This document shows positions 4,536 through 58,108 of a stretch of 64,000 bases of DNA, one piece after another; the first letter of the stretch is position 1; each line of letters begins with the position of its first letter. The notes beneath the pieces are model-generated. The model searched no databases and had not been told where the DNA came from. It saw only the letters and a list, made by a program, of their open reading frames with translations. The stretch lies in contig CAWFGP010000003.1 in assembly GCA_963815515.1 (NCBI GenBank), positions 1,026,429-1,090,428 on the forward strand, read 5' to 3'. The translations under genes were made by a program, and so were the position numbers. Origin of the DNA: an uncultured Gemmatimonadales bacterium. Lineage in GTDB: Bacteria > Gemmatimonadota > Gemmatimonadetes > Gemmatimonadales > GWC2-71-9.

Positions 4536-5492
4536 ATGCCCGCGACCCCCCGCCGCGCCGACTGCGCCCACCTGACCCAGGGCCCGGCGACCCCCATGCC
4601 GCGCCTGTGGCTCGTGCTGGGACTCACGGGCACCTTCATGGTGCTGGAGGTCATCGGCGGCTGGCTGAGCGGCTCGCTGGCGCTGCTGGCCGACGCCGGC
4701 CACATGCTGACCGACGTCGGCGCGCTGGCCCTGAGCCTGCTCACGGCCTGGATCGCCCAGCGGCCGGCCGACGATACCAAGACCTACGGCTATCTCCGCT
4801 GGGAGATCCTGGCCGCGCTGGTGAACGGGGCCGCCCTCTTCGGCATCGCGGGCTGGGTGGTGGTCGAGGCCATCCAGCGGATTCAGCACCCCGAGCCGAT
4901 CCGGACCGGGCTCTTCCTGGCAGTCGCCGCCGCGGGGCTGGTGGTGAACCTCATCAGCCTGGGCCTGCTGCACGGCTCGCGTGAGGGCAGCCTCAACGCC
5001 CGCGGCGCCTACCTCCACGTCCTCGGCGATGCCCTTGGCTCCGCCGGGGCGCTCGGCGCCGCGGCGATCATCTGGCTCACCGGCTGGCTTCCCGCCGATC
5101 CGATCGCGTCGATCGGCCTCTCATTGTTGATCCTGGCCGGCGCCTGGCGCCTCATCCGCGAAAGCACCGACATCCTGCTCGACGCCGTCCCCCGCCACGT
5201 CGTCCTTGCCGAGGTTCACCGGCGTATCCTGGAAGTCCCGGGGGTGGCGGCGGTCCACGACCTCCACGTCTGGACGGTAGTGAACGGGGTCGTAGCGATG
5301 AGCGGTCACGCGGTCGTCCCCGAGCTGGAGAGCCATCCGGTGGTGCTCGACGGGATCCGGACGGAGATGGCCGGCCTCGGCATCGACCACGTGACGATGC
5401 AGCTCGAGGTGGCGGACGAGTGTGAGGAGGTCCGGGTGGGGGTGGGGTCGGCCGCTCACGCAGGCCACGGGCATCACGGGCACGGGCATTAG
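4536..5492 (+). CDS. czcD: Cation diffusion facilitator (CzcD/ZitB-type) metal efflux transporter
   Basis: Shows 'LALLADAGHMLTDVGALALSL', 'YGYLRWEILAALVNG', 'AYLHVLGDALGSAG' and a His-rich tail 'AAHAGHGHHGHGH'. The start could alternatively be the ATG at 4596. Confidence 0.88.
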   Translation: MPATPRRADCAHLTQGPATPMPRLWLVLGLTGTFMVLEVIGGWLSGSLALLADAGHMLTDVGALALSLLTAWIAQRPADDTKTYGYLRWEILAALVNGAALFGIAGWVVVEAIQRIQHPEPIRTGLFLAVAAAGLVVNLISLGLLHGSREGSLNARGAYLHVLGDALGSAGALGAAAIIWLTGWLPADPIASIGLSLLILAGAWRLIRESTDILLDAVPRHVVLAEVHRRILEVPGVAAVHDLHVWTVVNGVVAMSGHAVVPELESHPVVLDGIRTEMAGLGIDHVTMQLEVADECEEVRVGVGSAAHAGHGHHGHGH

Positions 5493-5743: not shown

Positions 5744-7588
<1,845 letters not shown>

Positions 7589-7936: not shown

Positions 7937-8010
<74 letters not shown>

Positions 8011-8286: not shown

Positions 8287-9393
8287 ATGACAGACCCAGA
8301 TCCGGTCACCTCGCGGCCCCTCGAGGACAAGGTCTTCGTCTTCCTGGTCATCGCGGTGACGCTGGCGTTCGCCTGGATCCTCCGGCCGTTCCTCGGCGCG
8401 GTGCTCTGGGGAGTCATTCTCGCGATCGTGTTCCAACCGCTCTACCGGCGGCTGCTCAGTTCCGGGCGCCGGCGGCGCACCCTTGCCGCGCTCGGCACAG
8501 TGCTCATCATCCTGGTGCTCGTGATCCTGCCGGTGACGCTGCTCACCGTGTTGCTGGTGCAGGAGGGCGTCGGCACCTATCAGCGGATCCAGTCGGGAGA
8601 GCTGAACGTCGGCCAGTACTTTCAGCAGGTCTTCGACGCCCTGCCCGCCTGGGTGACCAATCTGCTGGACCGCGTCGGGCTGACCAGCCTCCGCCGAGTG
8701 CAAGAGCGATTGACCTCCGGCCTGACGCAGAGCCTGCAGTTCCTGGGGACGCAGGCGCTGAACATCGGACAGAACGCGCTCGAGTTCGTCCTCAGCCTGT
8801 TCGTCATGCTCTACCTGCTGTTCTTCCTGCTGCGCGATGGGGACGCCCTGTATCGGCGCATTCGGGATGCGGTCCCGCTGCGCCCGGAGCAACGGCGCAA
8901 TCTCGCCGAGCGGTTCGCGACCGTCATCCGCGCCACAGTCAAGGGCAACATCGTGGTGGCCCTGGTTCAGGGGGCGCTGGGCGGTCTGATCCTCTGGCTG
9001 CTGGGCATCGGCACGCCGGTTCTGTGGGGGGCGGTGATGGCCCTACTTTCACTGCTCCCTGCGGTGGGAGCCGCCATCGTGTGGCTGCCGGTCGGCGTGT
9101 ACCTCCTGATGACGGGCGCGGTGTGGAAGGGGATTGTGCTGATCGCCTTCGGCATGCTCGTGATCGGCCTGATTGACAACATTCTGCGCCCAATCCTGGT
9201 GGGGAAGGACACCCAGATGCCCGACTACCTCGTCCTGCTCTCCACCCTGGGCGGCATCGCCGTCTTCGGCCTCAACGGGTTCGTCCTGGGGCCGGTGATC
9301 GCGGCGCTGTTCATCACCATCTGGGATATCGCGTCGGCGTCGAGGGCGGGACGGCGGCTCGGCGGGTCCGAGCTCGAGCCGGGGGCGGAGTAG
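8287..9393 (+). CDS. AI-2E family transporter (PerM/UPF0118)
   Basis: Track ORF 7978..9393, trimmed to ATG 8287 (MTDPDPVTSRPLEDKVFVFLVIAV...). Multi-pass membrane protein with 'LSLLPAVGAAIVWLPVGVYL' and 'ILRPILVGKDTQMPDYLVLLSTLGG'. Confidence 0.88.
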   Translation: MTDPDPVTSRPLEDKVFVFLVIAVTLAFAWILRPFLGAVLWGVILAIVFQPLYRRLLSSGRRRRTLAALGTVLIILVLVILPVTLLTVLLVQEGVGTYQRIQSGELNVGQYFQQVFDALPAWVTNLLDRVGLTSLRRVQERLTSGLTQSLQFLGTQALNIGQNALEFVLSLFVMLYLLFFLLRDGDALYRRIRDAVPLRPEQRRNLAERFATVIRATVKGNIVVALVQGALGGLILWLLGIGTPVLWGAVMALLSLLPAVGAAIVWLPVGVYLLMTGAVWKGIVLIAFGMLVIGLIDNILRPILVGKDTQMPDYLVLLSTLGGIAVFGLNGFVLGPVIAALFITIWDIASASRAGRRLGGSELEPGAE

Positions 9394-9967: not shown

Positions 9968-10048
9968 ATGAACTCGACCACTCTGCTCATCATCATCATC
10001 GTGGTGCTGCTACTCGGTGGCGGCGGATTCTTCTTCCGCCGGCGCTAG
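9968..10048 (+). CDS. 26-aa hydrophobic micro-protein (MNSTTLLIIIIVVLLLGGGGFFFRRR)
   Basis: Too short for the ORF track. A strong SD (AAGAGGAGA) lies 5 nt upstream of ATG 9968. It has a single TM helix with a basic tail. Confidence 0.45.
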   Translation: MNSTTLLIIIIVVLLLGGGGFFFRRR

Positions 10049-10106
10049 AGGGCACGGCGGGCGCCCATGTCCATCCGCCGTGGGCGTCCATACTGACATC
10101 GTCAGC

Positions 10107-10901
10107 ATGAACCCGCTCGAGCTGCTGGCGCGCACCGGCTTCCTGGTGAAGGGCTTGCTGTACATAGTCATCGGGGTGCTGGCGCTGCAGGTCGCCACGG
10201 GGCTCGGCGGACGAGTGACGGGCACCCGCGGCGCGCTCATGACCGTGCTCGGGCAGCCCTTCGGGCGCACGCTGTTGCTGATCGCCGCCATCAGCCTGTT
10301 TGGCTATGCGGTCTGGCGGGTCCTGCAGGGCCTCCTCGATTCGGACGGGCTGGGACACGAATGGCGCGCGATTGCATTGCGCGTGAGCTACGTCGGACGT
10401 GGCGCAGTGTACGCGGCGCTGGGGCTGCAGGTGGTTCGCATTTACCGTGGGCTGTCGCAGTCATCCGGCACCAGCGAGCGAGAAATAGCCGCCGAAGCGT
10501 TCCGGTGGCCATTCGGTGATTGGCTCGTCGTTCTGGCAGGACTGGCCTTGATCGGTTTCGCAGTCCAGCAGGTCTACGCTGCCATCACTTCCCGGCTGGA
10601 ACGCAACCTCGATCTCGCCAAGCTGAGGCGCGACGCGGGCGAATGGGCGGTGTCCCTCAGCCGGTTTGGCATGGCGGCCCGGGGCGTCGTCTTTGCGCTA
10701 CTCGGCTGGTTTGTCGTCGGGGCGGGCTTGTCCCGTGACCCGTCTGAGGTCGGCACCACCGCATCGTCGATGCGTCTGCTGGCGGGGCAGCCGGGCGGGT
10801 TGGGGCGCTGGCTGCTCGGCATCACCGCCGCCGGGTTCATCGCCTATGGGTTCTACCAGTTGGTTCACGCGCGCTATCTGCGGATCCGGCGCATGGGCTG
10901 A
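10107..10901 (+). CDS. DUF1206 domain membrane protein
   Basis: Track ORF 10017..10901, trimmed to ATG 10107 (MNPLELLARTGFLVKGLLYIVIGVLAL...). Carries three repeats of the DUF1206 two-helix unit ('RGAVYAALG', 'ARGVVFALLGWF'). Confidence 0.8.
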   Translation: MNPLELLARTGFLVKGLLYIVIGVLALQVATGLGGRVTGTRGALMTVLGQPFGRTLLLIAAISLFGYAVWRVLQGLLDSDGLGHEWRAIALRVSYVGRGAVYAALGLQVVRIYRGLSQSSGTSEREIAAEAFRWPFGDWLVVLAGLALIGFAVQQVYAAITSRLERNLDLAKLRRDAGEWAVSLSRFGMAARGVVFALLGWFVVGAGLSRDPSEVGTTASSMRLLAGQPGGLGRWLLGITAAGFIAYGFYQLVHARYLRIRRMG

Positions 10902-10986
10902 GGGTGGGTGGTGGGTCAACAGTTCGCCGAAATGATCAAGCCCGGCCGGCTGCCATCGAGCCAAGTGGCCCCATCGCGCGAGCGGG

Positions 10987-11778
10987 TCACGGGCCTGCGG
11001 GTCGGAGCGCGGTCATCATCACGGCCTTCACTCCGTATGCCTCCGCCGCATCCTGCGTTGCCCCTTTCCGGAATCGGAACCCCGGTACCACCGCGGAGCG
11101 CACGCGCGAGAAGCCCGACTCCTCGAGCAACCGGAACATCTCTCCCTCCGGGAGAGCGCCGCCGATTCACGAGGCCCACAGCTTGGGATCGTTCACGATG
11201 GACTGCGAGAGCTGCTTGGCGCTCACGATGTCGGTAATCGAGATCCGGCCGCCGGGCCGCAGCACGCGGAAGAGCTCCTGGACCACGCGGCGCTTGCGAA
11301 AGGAAAGATTGATCACCCCATTGGAGAGCACGACGTCAACCGACGCGTCAGGAAGCGGGATGGCCTCCATACTCCCCTCCCGGCACTCCATCTGCATCCC
11401 GGTCGTCGCGGCATGGGCTTGCGCTTTCACGCACATGGCCGGATTCAGATCGACTCCGACCACCCGGCCTCCGGGGCCCACCTGCCAGGACGCAATGATG
11501 GCATCCAGCCCCGCACCGCTGCCGAGATCGAGTACCGTCTCGCCTGCCTGCAGGTGGCTGCGCTCGTGCGGATTCCCGACCCCTGCGAAGGAGGCAACCG
11601 CGCCGGCCGGCGCCCGATCGAGCCAGTCCGCCGAGTAGCCGAAGAGCTCCGCGGCCACTCGGCCGTGGAAGAAGTGAAAGGCGCTCTCCGGCTGGTCGGC
11701 GACTGCCTGGTACATGCGGAGGATCTCCTCCTTGAGAACGGCCTCCAAGGGCGCCTGCGTATCGGCAATGTCCGTCAT
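10987..11778 (-). CDS. ArsM-like class I SAM methyltransferase with an in-frame TGA (11169..11167) at the conserved Cys position; candidate selenoprotein or nonsense-truncated gene
   Basis: SD AAGGAGGA precedes ATG 11778. Sequence runs MTDIADTQAPLEAVLKEEILRMYQAV..., with the SAM motif 'VLDLGSGAGLD' and 'RPGGRISITDIV'. The track ORF stops at TGA after 'DPKLWAS'. The same frame then stays open for 59 codons (IGGALPEGEMFRLLEESGFSRV...AYGVKAVMMTALRPAGP*) and still resembles ArsM C-termini. If the TGA is a true stop, the CDS is 11167..11778. Confidence 0.6.
11140..11156 (-). other. Hairpin 10 nt downstream of the in-frame UGA (SECIS-like candidate)
   Basis: The mRNA reads UGA-AUCGGCGGCG-CUCUCCC-GGA-GGGAGAG. 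This is a 7-bp perfect stem with an apical loop beginning GG, and the loop lies about 17-20 nt from the UGA. Confidence 0.4.
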
Positions 11779-11897
11779 CGCGATCCTCCTTGTCAGCTCG
11801 GGCCCAGCCATACGTCTCACCGTCGATCTCACAGCATGCGGCATCGCCATCCGGCCTTCGAAGGGCCGCGCCCACCCTGCAGCCGAACGACGTGGAC

Positions 11898-11945
11898 TTG
11901 ACGCGCGCAGGAGGCCATTCCAGTATTCTATGGACTTTTAGAATA
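11898..11945 (+). promoter_or_regulatory. Promoter plus palindromic operator candidate upstream of the ArsR-rhodanese gene
   Basis: TTGACG (11898..11903), N17, CAGTAT (11921..11926). This overlaps the AT-rich inverted repeat TATTCTA-N8-TAGAATA (11924..11945), which ends 13 nt before the ATG at 11959. The region is a divergent intergenic shared with the methyltransferase. Confidence 0.45.
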
Positions 11946-11958
11946 GTCAAGAGGCCTC

Positions 11959-12702
11959 ATGACCAGCGACCATCGCGCCTTCAAGGACGCCCTGTACACC
12001 CAGTTCGCCCGGATCGGCCACGCGGTCGCGAGCCCCAAGCGGCTCGAGCTGCTGGATCTCCTGGGCCAGGGCGAGAAAACCGTTGAACAGCTCGCCGAGC
12101 AGACGGCGACCGCGGTCAAGAACACCAGCGCTCATCTGCGCGCGCTCCGGCAGGCGCGGCTCGTCGAGACCCGGCGCGACGGCACGTACGTCTGGTACCG
12201 GCTTGCCGACGACGGCGTGGCTGCATTCGTCCTCGCGCTCCAGGCCCTCGGCCGCCATCGCTATGCCGAGGTCCGGGAGGTTGCCGAGTCGTACCTGGAG
12301 CGGCGCGACACGCTCGAGCCCATCCCGCCCGGGGAGCTTCGGCGCCGGCTGAAGGCCGGTGATGTGACGCTCATCGACGTCCGGCCGGAGGACGAGTTCG
12401 CCGCCGGGCACATCCCGGGTGCGCTTTCGGTGCCGGTGGCCGAGCTGGCGGATCGCCTCAGCGAGCTTCCCAAGCGCAAGGAGATCGTGGCCTACTGCCG
12501 CGGCCCATACTGCGTCCTGGCGGTCACGGCCATCGAGCTGTTGCGCCAGCGCGGCTACCGCGCGCGCCGGCTCGCCGAGAGCATTCCTGCGTGGCGCGCC
12601 CGCGGGTACCCCGTCGACCATGACCCCGCCAGCCGCCAGCGTGCCGCTACCGAGACGGCCCCCACGCGTGTCACGCGACGCCGTGGAGGACGCCCCTCAT
12701 GA
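11959..12702 (+). CDS. ArsR/SmtB-family transcriptional regulator fused to a rhodanese domain
   Basis: wHTH region 'PKRLELLDLLGQGEKTVEQLAEQTATAVKNTSAHLRALRQARLVETRRDGTYVWYRLAD', then rhodanese 'TLIDVRPEDEFAAGHIPGALSVP...IVAYCRGPYC'. Confidence 0.88.
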   Translation: MTSDHRAFKDALYTQFARIGHAVASPKRLELLDLLGQGEKTVEQLAEQTATAVKNTSAHLRALRQARLVETRRDGTYVWYRLADDGVAAFVLALQALGRHRYAEVREVAESYLERRDTLEPIPPGELRRRLKAGDVTLIDVRPEDEFAAGHIPGALSVPVAELADRLSELPKRKEIVAYCRGPYCVLAVTAIELLRQRGYRARRLAESIPAWRARGYPVDHDPASRQRAATETAPTRVTRRRGGRPS

Positions 12703-14804: not shown

Positions 14805-15796
14805 TCAGGCCTCACGACCGCGCCTGATCCACACGCCGGCCGCCGCCGCCCCGGCCCCGATCAGGAGCGCGAGGCCGCGGTGCTCGGTCAGCCAGAGCTG
14901 CGGGCTAGGACGCCGCGCACGGGCGTCGAATCGGCCGTGCGTCCCGTGATCGCCAGGCACCGGCCACCAGAGATTATCTGCGCGGGACGGCGGTTCGGGC
15001 TCCGCCGTCTGCTGGGAACCGTATCCGGTTCGGGCCAGGTAGCGATCAACCAGCCGAGGCGCGATGCGATTCCCCCAGATGGCTGTCATCGACGAGAGCC
15101 CCACCGTGAGGTCGCGCCGCTCGGGGTGGAGCACCGCATACACGACTGCTTGGGCGCCGACCTCCGGCTGGAAGATCGGGGGAACCGGCTGGGGCCGGTT
15201 CGGCAGCCGGCTCTTGACCCAGTCGAACTGCGGTGTGTTCAGCGCCGGCATGTGCACCATCGTCACGCGAATCCCACTGCCGTCATGCAGAAGCTCGGTC
15301 CTCAAGGATTCGGTGAACCCCTTGATGGCATGCTTGGCCGCGCAATAAGCCGACTGCAGCGGGATGGCGCGGAACGCTAGCGCAGAGCTGACCTGAACGA
15401 TGGTCCCTCCGTCCCGGGGGAGCATGCGCTCCAGGGCCGCCAGCGTACCGTACGTAGCCCAGGTAAGTCACCTCGGCACGCGCCGGTACTCCGCGGCCGA
15501 CATCGCCTGACCGGAGCCAGCACGCTGACCATGGCGTTGTTCACCCAGACGTCCACCGGCCCCAGCTCACCCTCGATCCGGTCGGCCGCCGCTGCCACGG
15601 CTTGCGCGTCGGCGACGTCGGCCGGTACGGCGAGGGCGCGGCCCCCTCGATCGCGGATCTCCCGCTCCGTCGCGGTCAAGCCCTCCACACCGCGGGCCAG
15701 CAGTCCGACTGCCGCCCCGCGTTCGGCGAACGCGTGGGCGATGGCTCGGCCGAGCCCCGCGGACGCCCCGGTCACTACGACAACGCGCGGTACCAT
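14805..15796 (-). pseudogene. Short-chain dehydrogenase/reductase (SDR) with about three clustered frameshifts
   Basis: The N-terminal part (from ATG 15796, SD GGAGG) reads 'MVPRVVVVTGASAGLGRAIA...VDVWVNNAMVSV'. The C-terminal part, in another frame, reads 'MLPRDGGTIVQVSSALAFRAIPLQSAYCAAKHAIKGFTESL'. The connecting segment 'MSAAEYRRV','EVTYLGYV','YGTLAALERM' can only be read by switching frame three times between about 15430 and 15520. Confidence 0.65.
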
Positions 15797-16047
15797 GCGA
15801 CCTCCAGGTCGAACGAGAGCCTCACCCCGCACCCTCTTCCCGCAGTGTAGCCGGTTCCGGGGCAGGGGCAACGCCGCGTTTCTCGCCCGAGCCGACCCCG
15901 TGACCTGCCTCACGTATCTGACGTGCCGATCGCGCAAGACTGATCCACCTCGGAGGCAGGCGGCAGCGCCGTCCGGGTACGATTCGGAACGAAGGCGCAA
16001 GCTCGCAGTTAGGTTTCCTCCGATTACGTCATTCACCGAGGCCGTCT

Positions 16048-57618: not shown

Positions 57619-57693
57619 GTGGTTGTAGCTCAATCGGTTAGAGCGCCGGACTGTGGCTCCGGAGGTTGCGGGTTCAAGTCCCGTCAGCCACCC
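57619..57693 (+). tRNA. tRNA-His (anticodon GUG)
   Basis: G(-1)GTGGTTGTAGCTCAATCGGTTAGAGCGCCGGACTGTGGCTCCGGAGGTTGCGGGTTCAAGTCCCGTCAGCCACCC. The extra 5' G pairs with C73, and the anticodon loop is CTGTGGC. Confidence 0.88.
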
Positions 57694-57707
57694 TGGTGAA
57701 GGTGCAG

Positions 57708-57780
57708 AGGTCCGTAGCTCAATTGGTAGAGCACCGGTCTCCAAAACCGGGGGTTGCAGGTTCGATTCCTGCCGGGCCTG
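57708..57780 (+). tRNA. tRNA-Trp (anticodon CCA)
   Basis: AGGTCCGTAGCTCAATTGGTAGAGCACCGGTCTCCAAAACCGGGGGTTGCAGGTTCGATTCCTGCCGGGCCTG, anticodon loop CTCCAAA. Confidence 0.88.
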
Positions 57781-57842
57781 CTGATTCCGCATGCTGATGA
57801 CCGCATGCTGATGCATGTTGGTTGGGTGCTGATCGGACGCTT

Positions 57843-57915
57843 GGCGCTATCGTCTAGGGGACTAGGACGGGGCCCTCTCAAGGCCCAAACACGGGTTCGA
57901 ATCCCGTTAGCGCTA
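57843..57915 (+). tRNA. tRNA-Glu (anticodon CUC)
   Basis: GGCGCTATCGTCTAGGGGACTAGGACGGGGCCCTCTCAAGGCCCAAACACGGGTTCGAATCCCGTTAGCGCTA, anticodon loop CTCTCAA. Has a G1-U72 wobble. Confidence 0.8.
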
Positions 57916-57934
57916 CTCGGTTGAAGGGGAGCAG

Positions 57935-58006
57935 GGCCCCATCGTCTATCGGTTAGGACGGGACCCTTTCAAGGTCCAGAGAGGGGTTCGACTCCCCTTG
58001 GGGCTA
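57935..58006 (+). tRNA. tRNA-Glu (anticodon UUC)
   Basis: GGCCCCATCGTCTATCGGTTAGGACGGGACCCTTTCAAGGTCCAGAGAGGGGTTCGACTCCCCTTGGGGCTA, anticodon loop CTTTCAA. Has a G1-U72 wobble. Confidence 0.8.
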
Positions 58007-58033
58007 TGGTGGGGAGGGGTGGAAGCCGGGCGC

Positions 58034-58106
58034 GCGCCGCTAGCTCAATTGGCAGAGCAAGTGACTCTTAATCACTAGGTTGTAGGTTCGATTCCTACGC
58101 GGCGCA
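58034..58106 (+). tRNA. tRNA-Lys (anticodon CUU)
   Basis: GCGCCGCTAGCTCAATTGGCAGAGCAAGTGACTCTTAATCACTAGGTTGTAGGTTCGATTCCTACGCGGCGCA, anticodon loop CTCTTAA. Confidence 0.9.
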
Positions 58107-58108
58107 CT
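58065..58108 (+). repeat. 44-bp direct repeat, copy 1 (3' half of tRNA-Lys; attL-like)
   Basis: CTCTTAATCACTAGGTTGTAGGTTCGATTCCTACGCGGCGCACT is identical to 59683..59726. Confidence 0.9.

Follow-up and report, generated by a model that had tools for sequence, protein, structure and literature searches.

A stretch of 64,000 nucleotides (nt) from an uncultured Gemmatimonadales bacterium (contig CAWFGP010000003.1, positions 1,026,429 to 1,090,428 of the forward strand; hereafter, the window) contains a methyltransferase gene that is interrupted by an in-frame TGA codon. It is very probable that this TGA (11169..11167) is a selenocysteine (Sec) codon, and that the gene specifies a 263-amino-acid methyltransferase of the ArsM/AS3MT superfamily, dependent on S-adenosylmethionine (SAM), with Sec at residue 204. 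This reading was preferred because the UGA falls on a Cys column of the family and is invariant where the true stop codon is variable, because the frame beyond it is under selection, and because the hairpin that follows is frozen in sequence and includes a compensatory pair. Sequence comparison thus showed a conserved UGA, a translated extension, a conserved and covarying hairpin and Cys homologues; the initial annotation of this DNA had proposed a candidate selenoprotein, and was supported in that every part of the comparative signature of a bacterial selenoprotein gene was present. The features concerned were as follows, where SECIS denotes a selenocysteine insertion sequence and CmArsM an algal ArsM protein.

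10987..11778, minus strand: complete coding sequence of the predicted 263-amino-acid selenoprotein methyltransferase, from translation; profile matches and the Halomonas alignment cross the UGA
11778, minus strand: start codon ATG, the true stop TGA being at 10989..10987
11785..11791, minus strand: Shine-Dalgarno sequence AAGGAGG, 6 nt before the ATG, read from the sequence
11167..11169, minus strand: in-frame UGA, read as Sec at residue 204, corresponding to CmArsM Cys224 and Halomonas ramblicola Cys208
10990..11166, minus strand: post-UGA extension of 59 codons, the C-terminal part of the methyltransferase (IGGALPEGEMF...YGVKAVMMTALRPAGP)
11140..11156, minus strand: SECIS-type hairpin CUCUCCC-GGA-GGGAGAG with a 7-bp stem, the apical loop GGA lying at 11149..11147
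11431..11433, minus strand: codon for Cys116, Cys in 80/80 aligned orthologues
11383..11385, minus strand: codon for Cys132, likewise Cys in 80/80 aligned orthologues

Translation from the ATG at 11778 ran to ...SIVNDPKLWAS, reached the TGA and then continued in the same frame through IGGALPEGEMFRLLEESGFSRV...GVKAVMMTALRPAGP to the true stop, giving a codon tally of 203 + 1 + 59 and a predicted peptide across residue 204 of LWAS-U-IGGALPEGEMFR. The initial annotation had described this interruption and the resumption of the frame for 59 codons, and had considered the length of the read-through product to be normal for an ArsM-like protein; both statements held, the Cys homologue from H. ramblicola being 264 amino acids long. 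The position of the start codon agreed with the N-termini of more than 100 homologue clusters, themselves called as proteins of 203 amino acids.

The gene was compared with 80 loci from species-representative genomes, making 81 sequences with the window itself. These loci derived mostly from Gemmatimonadota, some being labelled as Eisenbacteria and a few as Acidobacteriota or other phyla; they shared 77–88% amino-acid identity with the query, and belonged to separate assemblies rather than being copies of one sequence. Complete genomes carrying the gene include CP070722.1 and CP070666.1. The codon after ...DP[KL]LWA[SA] was TGA in 81/81 sequences, and TAA, TAG or TGC in none, while the true stop codons of the loci varied (TGA 47, TAG 21, TAA 11). 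Whether close relatives also carry the TGA had been set as a check on the initial proposal, and every orthologue did so. Past the TGA, the frame ran for 56–67 codons in the orthologues, and mean column conservation in their alignment was 0.868 after the UGA against 0.874 before it. Variation within the extension was mainly at third positions (entropy at the three codon positions of 0.44, 0.26 and 1.23 bits). This applied even to the nine codons that separate the UGA from the next ATG downstream, where Ile was encoded as ATC, ATT or ATA across the 81 sequences, and where both Gly codons after the UGA used all four synonyms, with their first and second positions invariant and a third-position entropy of 1.7–1.8 bits. 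These patterns show that the extension after the TGA is translated in the same frame. In a protein search, over 110 clusters were matched at 82–97% identity; almost all are of exactly 203 amino acids, and some are named by NCBI as 'methyltransferase domain-containing protein [Gemmatimonadales bacterium]'.

The stem of the hairpin begins 10 nt past the UGA and the distance from UGA to loop is 17 nt, which confirmed the initial description of a 7-bp hairpin ten nucleotides downstream with its loop 17–20 nt away. The minimum free energy (MFE) of the hairpin alone was -11.5 kcal/mol (z = -2.7 against shuffles), and that of its 60-nt context was -29.7 kcal/mol (z = -2.7). Both the 7-bp stem and the GGA loop were kept in 81/81 sequences, with 98.8% of cells paired. 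The loop-closing pair was C:G in 40 sequences, U:A in 38 and U:G in 3, while C:A did not occur; the change on the 5' side replaces the amino acid (Pro/Leu), and that on the 3' side is synonymous (GAG/GAA). At least 6–8 independent switches of this pair were required on a neighbour-joining tree estimated from the remainder of the gene, and its two variants had MFE values of -11.5 and -9.8 kcal/mol. Elsewhere in the hairpin, synonymous sites were frozen: among codons +4 to +9 (GCU CUC CYG GAR GGA GAG), third-position entropy was approximately zero, with GCU in 79/81 sequences, CUC in 81/81, GGA in 81/81 and GAG in 77/81. This fixation occurred in a genome of 69% G+C, where GCU and GGA are not preferred codons. 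The hairpin is under selection as RNA. The published model of the bacterial SECIS (bSECIS) specifies a loop of 3–9 nt with G in its first two positions, a stem of 4–16 bp, a UGA-to-loop distance of 16–37 nt and an MFE of -7.5 kcal/mol or lower (PMC13188914). Checked against these quoted values, as the initial annotation had advised for a SECIS model, the hairpin fell within all of them (a 3-nt GGA loop, 7 bp, 17 nt, and -11.5 or -9.8 kcal/mol).

The residue at the UGA column was established through homologues and solved structures. The closest solved structures were those of algal ArsM, 5EVJ and 4FR0/4FS8/4KW7 (E from 2e-25 to 3e-24, about 1e-25), in which the stretch lwasC/UiGGAL aligned with lygeCLGGAL, placing the UGA on CmArsM Cys224; the SAM motif VLDLGSGAG(LD) also matched the ArsM motif in 5EVJ and 4FR0. 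H. ramblicola protein P0132 was 43% identical to the window product from residue 15 to the C-terminus, the alignment being ungapped at and after the UGA, with Cys208 on the UGA and a C-terminal YGVK motif common to both. Therefore, the initial placing of the UGA on the conserved ArsM Cys was borne out. So was its caveat that the other two arsenic-binding cysteines are replaced (AGVGNP, LSNGVINL), since CmArsM Cys72 corresponds to Val66 (faGVGnp) in the window protein, and Cys174 to Gly153 (SNGVINLS). To classify the homologues, representatives at 50% identity were searched exhaustively with a full-length relative, P0001, as query. Its 150 top matches included 62 canonical three-cysteine ArsM proteins and 31 'single-Cys' proteins, with a non-Cys residue, Gly and Cys at the three positions; Cys therefore occupied the UGA column in 31 single-Cys and 62 canonical representatives. 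A further 25 were open reading frames (ORFs) that ended exactly before the UGA column, and each of these had Gly in place of Cys174. Three had Trp at the UGA column, probably through the use of another translation table in gene calling, and the remaining 29 were fragments, lacked coverage at the site or had other residue patterns. By alignment, then, the Sec/Cys pair that is the hallmark for selenoprotein detection is present. Two Cys-form genes had TGC as the codon, and the next 26 nt folded at only -3.3 and -5.5 kcal/mol; among the genes examined, only the TGA forms have the hairpin.

Several further observations arose from these homologues. Other single-Cys ArsM-like subfamilies (P0148, P0151, P0153, P0168, P0176, P0179, P0185 and others), at about 41–48% identity, also end at the UGA column in contexts such as IDLWTG-stop, some having an N-terminal domain of approximately 200 amino acids; this suggests that the truncated IDLWTG-type subfamilies may be additional, unannotated Sec forms. 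For P0001 and three representatives, the public calls read the TGA as Trp and are full-length but wrongly translated, presumably from a non-standard translation table applied to the contig. The names found within the single-Cys branch were no more specific than 'methyltransferase domain-containing protein', 'UbiE' or 'arsenite methyltransferase'.

Profile searches placed the product among class I SAM methyltransferases, with Methyltransf_31 at 90.7 bits and matches to Methyltransf_11/25 also; together, the Methyltransf and ArsM-type NCBIfam matches covered residues 13–256 and crossed the UGA. The best NCBIfam models were exception models for ArsM-type selenoproteins, namely NF041537 (ArsM/AhpD; 207 bits, cut-off 510), NF047649 (methyltransferase/UXPK-star double selenoprotein; 188 bits, cut-off 460) and NF041536 (ArsM/DUF2284; 176 bits, cut-off 575), together with the generic ArsM model PRK11873/NF008823 (203.9 bits, cut-off 263); all scores were below the cut-off. 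The architecture of the exception models was absent from the window protein, which has a single domain, no AhpD, no DUF2284 and no second Sec; its C-terminus reads ...LRPAGP-stop, with no U-x-P-K. One definition of ArsM proteins asks for three or more of the four cysteines conserved in the family, CmArsM Cys44, 72, 174 and 224 (PMC5552862). Among Cys72, Cys174 and Cys224, the window protein kept only the Cys224 position, as predicted Sec, and so fell outside this definition. Its only cysteines besides Sec204 are Cys116 and Cys132, both aligned with non-Cys residues of CmArsM; with three Cys/Sec residues in the whole protein, at most one of the four conserved ArsM positions is therefore filled. 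In the relatives, the Cys116 position mostly held other residues (often Leu, Ile or Arg), a few distant representatives having Cys, and the Cys132 position was hydrophobic, mostly Phe but also Val, Ile or Leu. Cys116 and Cys132 are possibly a contacting pair. Hence, of the ArsM-like label first applied to the gene, the superfamily and ancestry were upheld by profiles and structures, and membership of ArsM proper was not, given one of three ligands and a score below the PRK11873 cut-off; on these alignments, 'ArsM-like' is a term of ancestry rather than of demonstrated function.

If the UGA is decoded as the standard bacterial mechanism would predict, the 17-nt hairpin would act as a SECIS and bring SelB-GTP-Sec-tRNASec to a ribosome that has paused at the UGA, whereupon translation would go on for 59 more codons. 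Certain points weigh against Sec decoding. A scan with ARAGORN, and with tblastn using E. coli SelD, SelA, SelB and FdhF probes, found no selA, selB, selD or tRNA-Sec in the 64-kb window or in approximately 1.2 Mb of flanking sequence of the 80 loci, as would be expected where the sel genes are unlinked. Rfam returned no SECIS family match, either across the whole window at gathering thresholds or for 11040..11260 at E <= 10; the lack of an Rfam match is usual for bacterial SECIS elements. No report of Sec use in Gemmatimonadota was found in the literature searched. Lastly, we infer the actual insertion of selenium at residue 204 from sequence, and this too was counted on the negative side. 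A SelB-like G-domain match within the window was rejected as a candidate, being the GTPase TypA (5744..7588).

The absence of Sec machinery from the window and locus flanks would also be consistent with a hairpin-aided recoding of the UGA to an amino acid other than Sec: to Cys, through a tRNA with a UCA anticodon and a SelB-like factor, or to Trp through near-cognate read-through. Some bacteria are known to recode UGA as Cys, and a few public calls place W at the site, probably through another translation table. This explanation was considered improbable, since the hairpin matches the SelB-dependent bSECIS model in its position, its size and its G-containing loop; since the ArsM family is known to have Sec/Cys pairs at exactly this site (PMC13188914, PMC2398784); and since Cys could be specified by TGC without any recoding element, as it is in the Cys forms. 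Less probable still was a genuine stop at the TGA followed by a translationally coupled protein of 50 amino acids from the ATG at 11139, with the 3' arm of the hairpin (GGAGGGAGAG) serving as a Shine-Dalgarno sequence and the hairpin regulating re-initiation. This ATG lies 10 codons past the TGA, is preceded by GGAGGGAGAG and occurs in 75/81 sequences, but in 3/81 the start codon is replaced by CTC or CTG. Moreover, the nine codons from the TGA to the ATG (I-G-G-A-L-P/L-E-G-E) evolve as coding sequence and align with the C-[IV]-G-G-A-L motif of full-length homologues, and a mere stop would not account for TGA in 81/81 sequences when TAG and TAA make up 40% of true stops.

The initial annotation regarded a recent TGC-to-TGA nonsense mutation as a serious alternative, in which case the gene would yield a truncated protein of 203 amino acids, or nothing functional, and the downstream remnant would be decaying. 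Gene callers and the NCBI annotation do end the protein at 203 amino acids, and a frameshifted gene for a short-chain dehydrogenase/reductase (SDR) is situated 3.6 kb away. Yet the TGA is present in all orthologues, from species-level genomes across the phylum, and the 56–67 codons downstream are conserved to the same degree as those upstream, with coding-type variation among codon positions and evident purifying selection; therefore, a recent nonsense mutation was excluded, and the likelihood of a pseudogene can be treated as negligible. A global reassignment of TGA was not supported, since TGA is the ordinary stop of other Pfam-supported genes in the window, and since a scan of periodicity in third-position G+C showed the methyltransferase gene to be the only frame in the window that reads through TGA as coding sequence, with no convincing further TGA-crossing coding frames in the fetched loci.

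Sec decoding of the UGA having been preferred, the function of the product was approached through its homology. Sec204 would occupy the metalloid-binding place of CmArsM Cys224, next to the SAM methyl group, and in the large single Cys/Sec branch to which the protein belongs, substrate binding is probably through a single Se-X bond, in place of a tri-thiolate chelate. A soft chalcogen or metalloid species would be the candidate substrate, for example sulfide or persulfide, selenide or a metalloid bound to thiols, and SAM would then supply the methyl group. The substrate is uncertain because two arsenic-binding cysteines are lost and because the scores fall below the NCBIfam cut-offs for ArsM and selenoproteins; any specific substrate class is thus doubtful on sequence grounds. 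It was proposed, tentatively, that this is a phylum-wide selenoenzyme of Gemmatimonadota and not an arsenite methyltransferase: the selenol would be its sole active-site nucleophile, the enzyme would methylate a chalcogen or metalloid species such as sulfide or persulfide, selenide or tellurium compounds through a single Se-X adduct or an Se-methyl intermediate, and Cys116 and Cys132 would add a redox or regulatory role. The working model, held with low confidence, is that a soft substrate may be caught on the single selenol and methylated from SAM. On the side of function, three results were counted against the preferred reading of the gene: the protein missed every curated family cut-off; an AlphaFold2 model from a shallow alignment had a predicted local distance difference test score of 48 and was discarded; and no operon was conserved across the 80 loci.

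The neighbourhood of the gene, and other features of the window, were as follows.

11959..12702, plus strand: divergent regulator, a fusion of an ArsR/SmtB helix-turn-helix domain and rhodanese (BigR-like), with NF033788 at 72.8 bits (cut-off 55) and Pfam HTH_5 and Rhodanese
11922..11950, minus strand: candidate sigma-70-like promoter TTGACT-17-AATACT from a consensus scan (1 site against 0.2 expected)
11924..11945: AT-rich inverted repeat TATTCTA-N8-TAGAATA, overlapping the promoter candidate within 11922..11961, between the methyltransferase and ArsR-rhodanese genes
4536..5492, plus strand: CDF-family cation efflux transporter (ZitB-like)
5744..7588, plus strand: translational GTPase TypA
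7937..8010, plus strand: lone tRNA-Ile-GAT
8290..9393, plus strand: AI-2E family transporter
10017..10901, plus strand: DUF1206 membrane protein
57619..58107, plus strand: tRNA cluster of His-GTG, Trp-CCA, Glu-CTC, Glu-TTC and Lys-CTT

The inverted repeat is possibly an ArsR-type operator serving both the methyltransferase gene and the divergent regulator gene, and it is possible, judging by this arrangement, that the ArsR-rhodanese protein regulates the methyltransferase in the genome of the window. A gene for an MFS transporter follows the regulator gene. The ArsR-rhodanese neighbour had been said to fit a sulfur, selenium or metalloid context; the gene is present as described, but the argument proved weak, since only about 10 of the 80 loci had a homologue adjoining the methyltransferase. 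Neighbours present in a minority of the 80 loci were a Ser/Thr kinase (14), an SQR-like protein (SQR/FCSD-like flavoprotein; 6), DsrE (5) and MFS (5), and the Cys-form loci contained a methyltransferase-MerC fusion, an SBF/ACR3-type carrier and a TPMT-like gene. In flavour, this context hints less at a classical ars operon than at the handling of chalcogens and soft metal(loid)s.

Among individual loci, the methyltransferase-MerC fusion of H. ramblicola (locus L081, 3621..4838, minus strand) lies beside a pair of extracytoplasmic function sigma and anti-sigma factors. In Ectothiorhodospiraceae (L082, 8459..9843, plus strand), the SBF/ACR3-type carrier is followed by a 98-amino-acid protein for which a precomputed match to PF28096 ('CC_Se_fam') was listed; our own Pfam scan did not reproduce this match. 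Two metagenome-assembled genomes labelled as Eisenbacteria (L024/L025, about 10786..11835, plus strand) have a downstream ORF that is apparently an ArsR-rhodanese protein with a C-terminal DsrE/DsrF-like domain. On one metagenome contig (P0042), an upstream generic SAM-methyltransferase and the 203-amino-acid part were called as one protein of 372 amino acids, and therefore a second methyltransferase gene lies directly upstream in that organism. In the window, the SDR gene at 14805..16036 (minus strand) occurs in two frames, 15377..16036 corresponding to adh_short 1–94 and 14805..15425 to adh_short 123–186, which is a frameshift and reflects either a pseudogene or an assembly error. It agrees with the initial remark that decayed genes lie nearby, and has no bearing on the methyltransferase gene.

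Hundreds of public Gemmatimonadota protein models end at 203 amino acids and are named only 'methyltransferase domain-containing protein', where the true product would be about 260 amino acids long, with Sec in its active site, and is missed by the NCBIfam selenoprotein models. If Sec decoding is correct, the use of Sec is widespread in Gemmatimonadota, a major soil phylum; if the enzyme is also a selenoenzyme acting on substrates other than arsenite, the ability to decode Sec would be common among soil Gemmatimonadota. Within a large ArsM-like branch lacking two of the three arsenic ligands, the gene would define a Sec/Cys pair, and the Sec marks a candidate catalytic residue. Surveys of soil arsM by homology only may include such genes among the arsenic methylases, although they probably act on another substrate. 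The points of interest are therefore the breadth of the gene across Gemmatimonadota and its predicted single-selenol active site.

With respect to known systems, a functional analogy may be drawn with MddH, a cytosolic S-methyltransferase of H2S and methanethiol, belonging to the UbiE family and of 24 kDa, for which homology is accepted at >45% identity to a verified MddH (PMC11445057). Compared by description, MddH is likewise a small soluble SAM methyltransferase that detoxifies a volatile chalcogen hydride; its 24 kDa compares with approximately 28 kDa expected for the window protein. An identity of the Halomonas Cys form with MddH was set aside, the 24-kDa size and UbiE family being a misfit by description, and MddM1 and MddM2 are, again by description, unrelated.

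CmArsM and Chlamydomonas ArsM chelate As(III) with Cys72, Cys174 and Cys224, whereas the window protein would present a chalcogen (Se) at the last of these positions only; algal ArsM (377–387 amino acids) also has a C-terminal domain that the window protein lacks. The single-Cys forms of Halomonas, Billgrantia and Ectothiorhodospiraceae resemble the window protein in having Val and Gly where the two cysteines are lost, but the Halomonas-type forms are without the clade-specific pair of Cys116 and Cys132. The E. coli fdhF-type SECIS is similarly a stem-loop directly 3' of the UGA within the coding region, in which G occupies the first loop positions; in its minimal form, the E. coli element is a stem-loop of 17 nt approximately 11 nt past the UGA. 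Compared with the fdhF SECIS, the window hairpin shows no sequence similarity, has a GGA triloop and has no evident bulged U; its 17-nt spacing lies within the fdhF-type consensus of 16–37 nt (PMC13188914).

The nearest parallel was with the known ArsM selenoproteins. In PMC13188914, ArsM (PRK11873) is listed as a selenoprotein family with a UxxG site, recognized since Fomenko et al. 2007, and the NF047649, NF041537 and NF041536 models are attributed to Haft and Tolstoy 2025; ArsM-family selenoproteins also appear in the GOS survey (PMC2398784) and in PMC9312934. These known proteins belong to the same superfamily as the window protein, and have Sec at the same column (U-I-G-G conforming to UxxG), which corresponds to CmArsM Cys224 and human AS3MT Cys206, with a SECIS directly past the UGA; the selenoproteins of the NCBIfam exception models share this UxxG site. 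Sec at the UxxG site of the ArsM family has therefore been known since 2007–2008, and the window gene is an unannotated addition to these selenoproteins, not a new kind.

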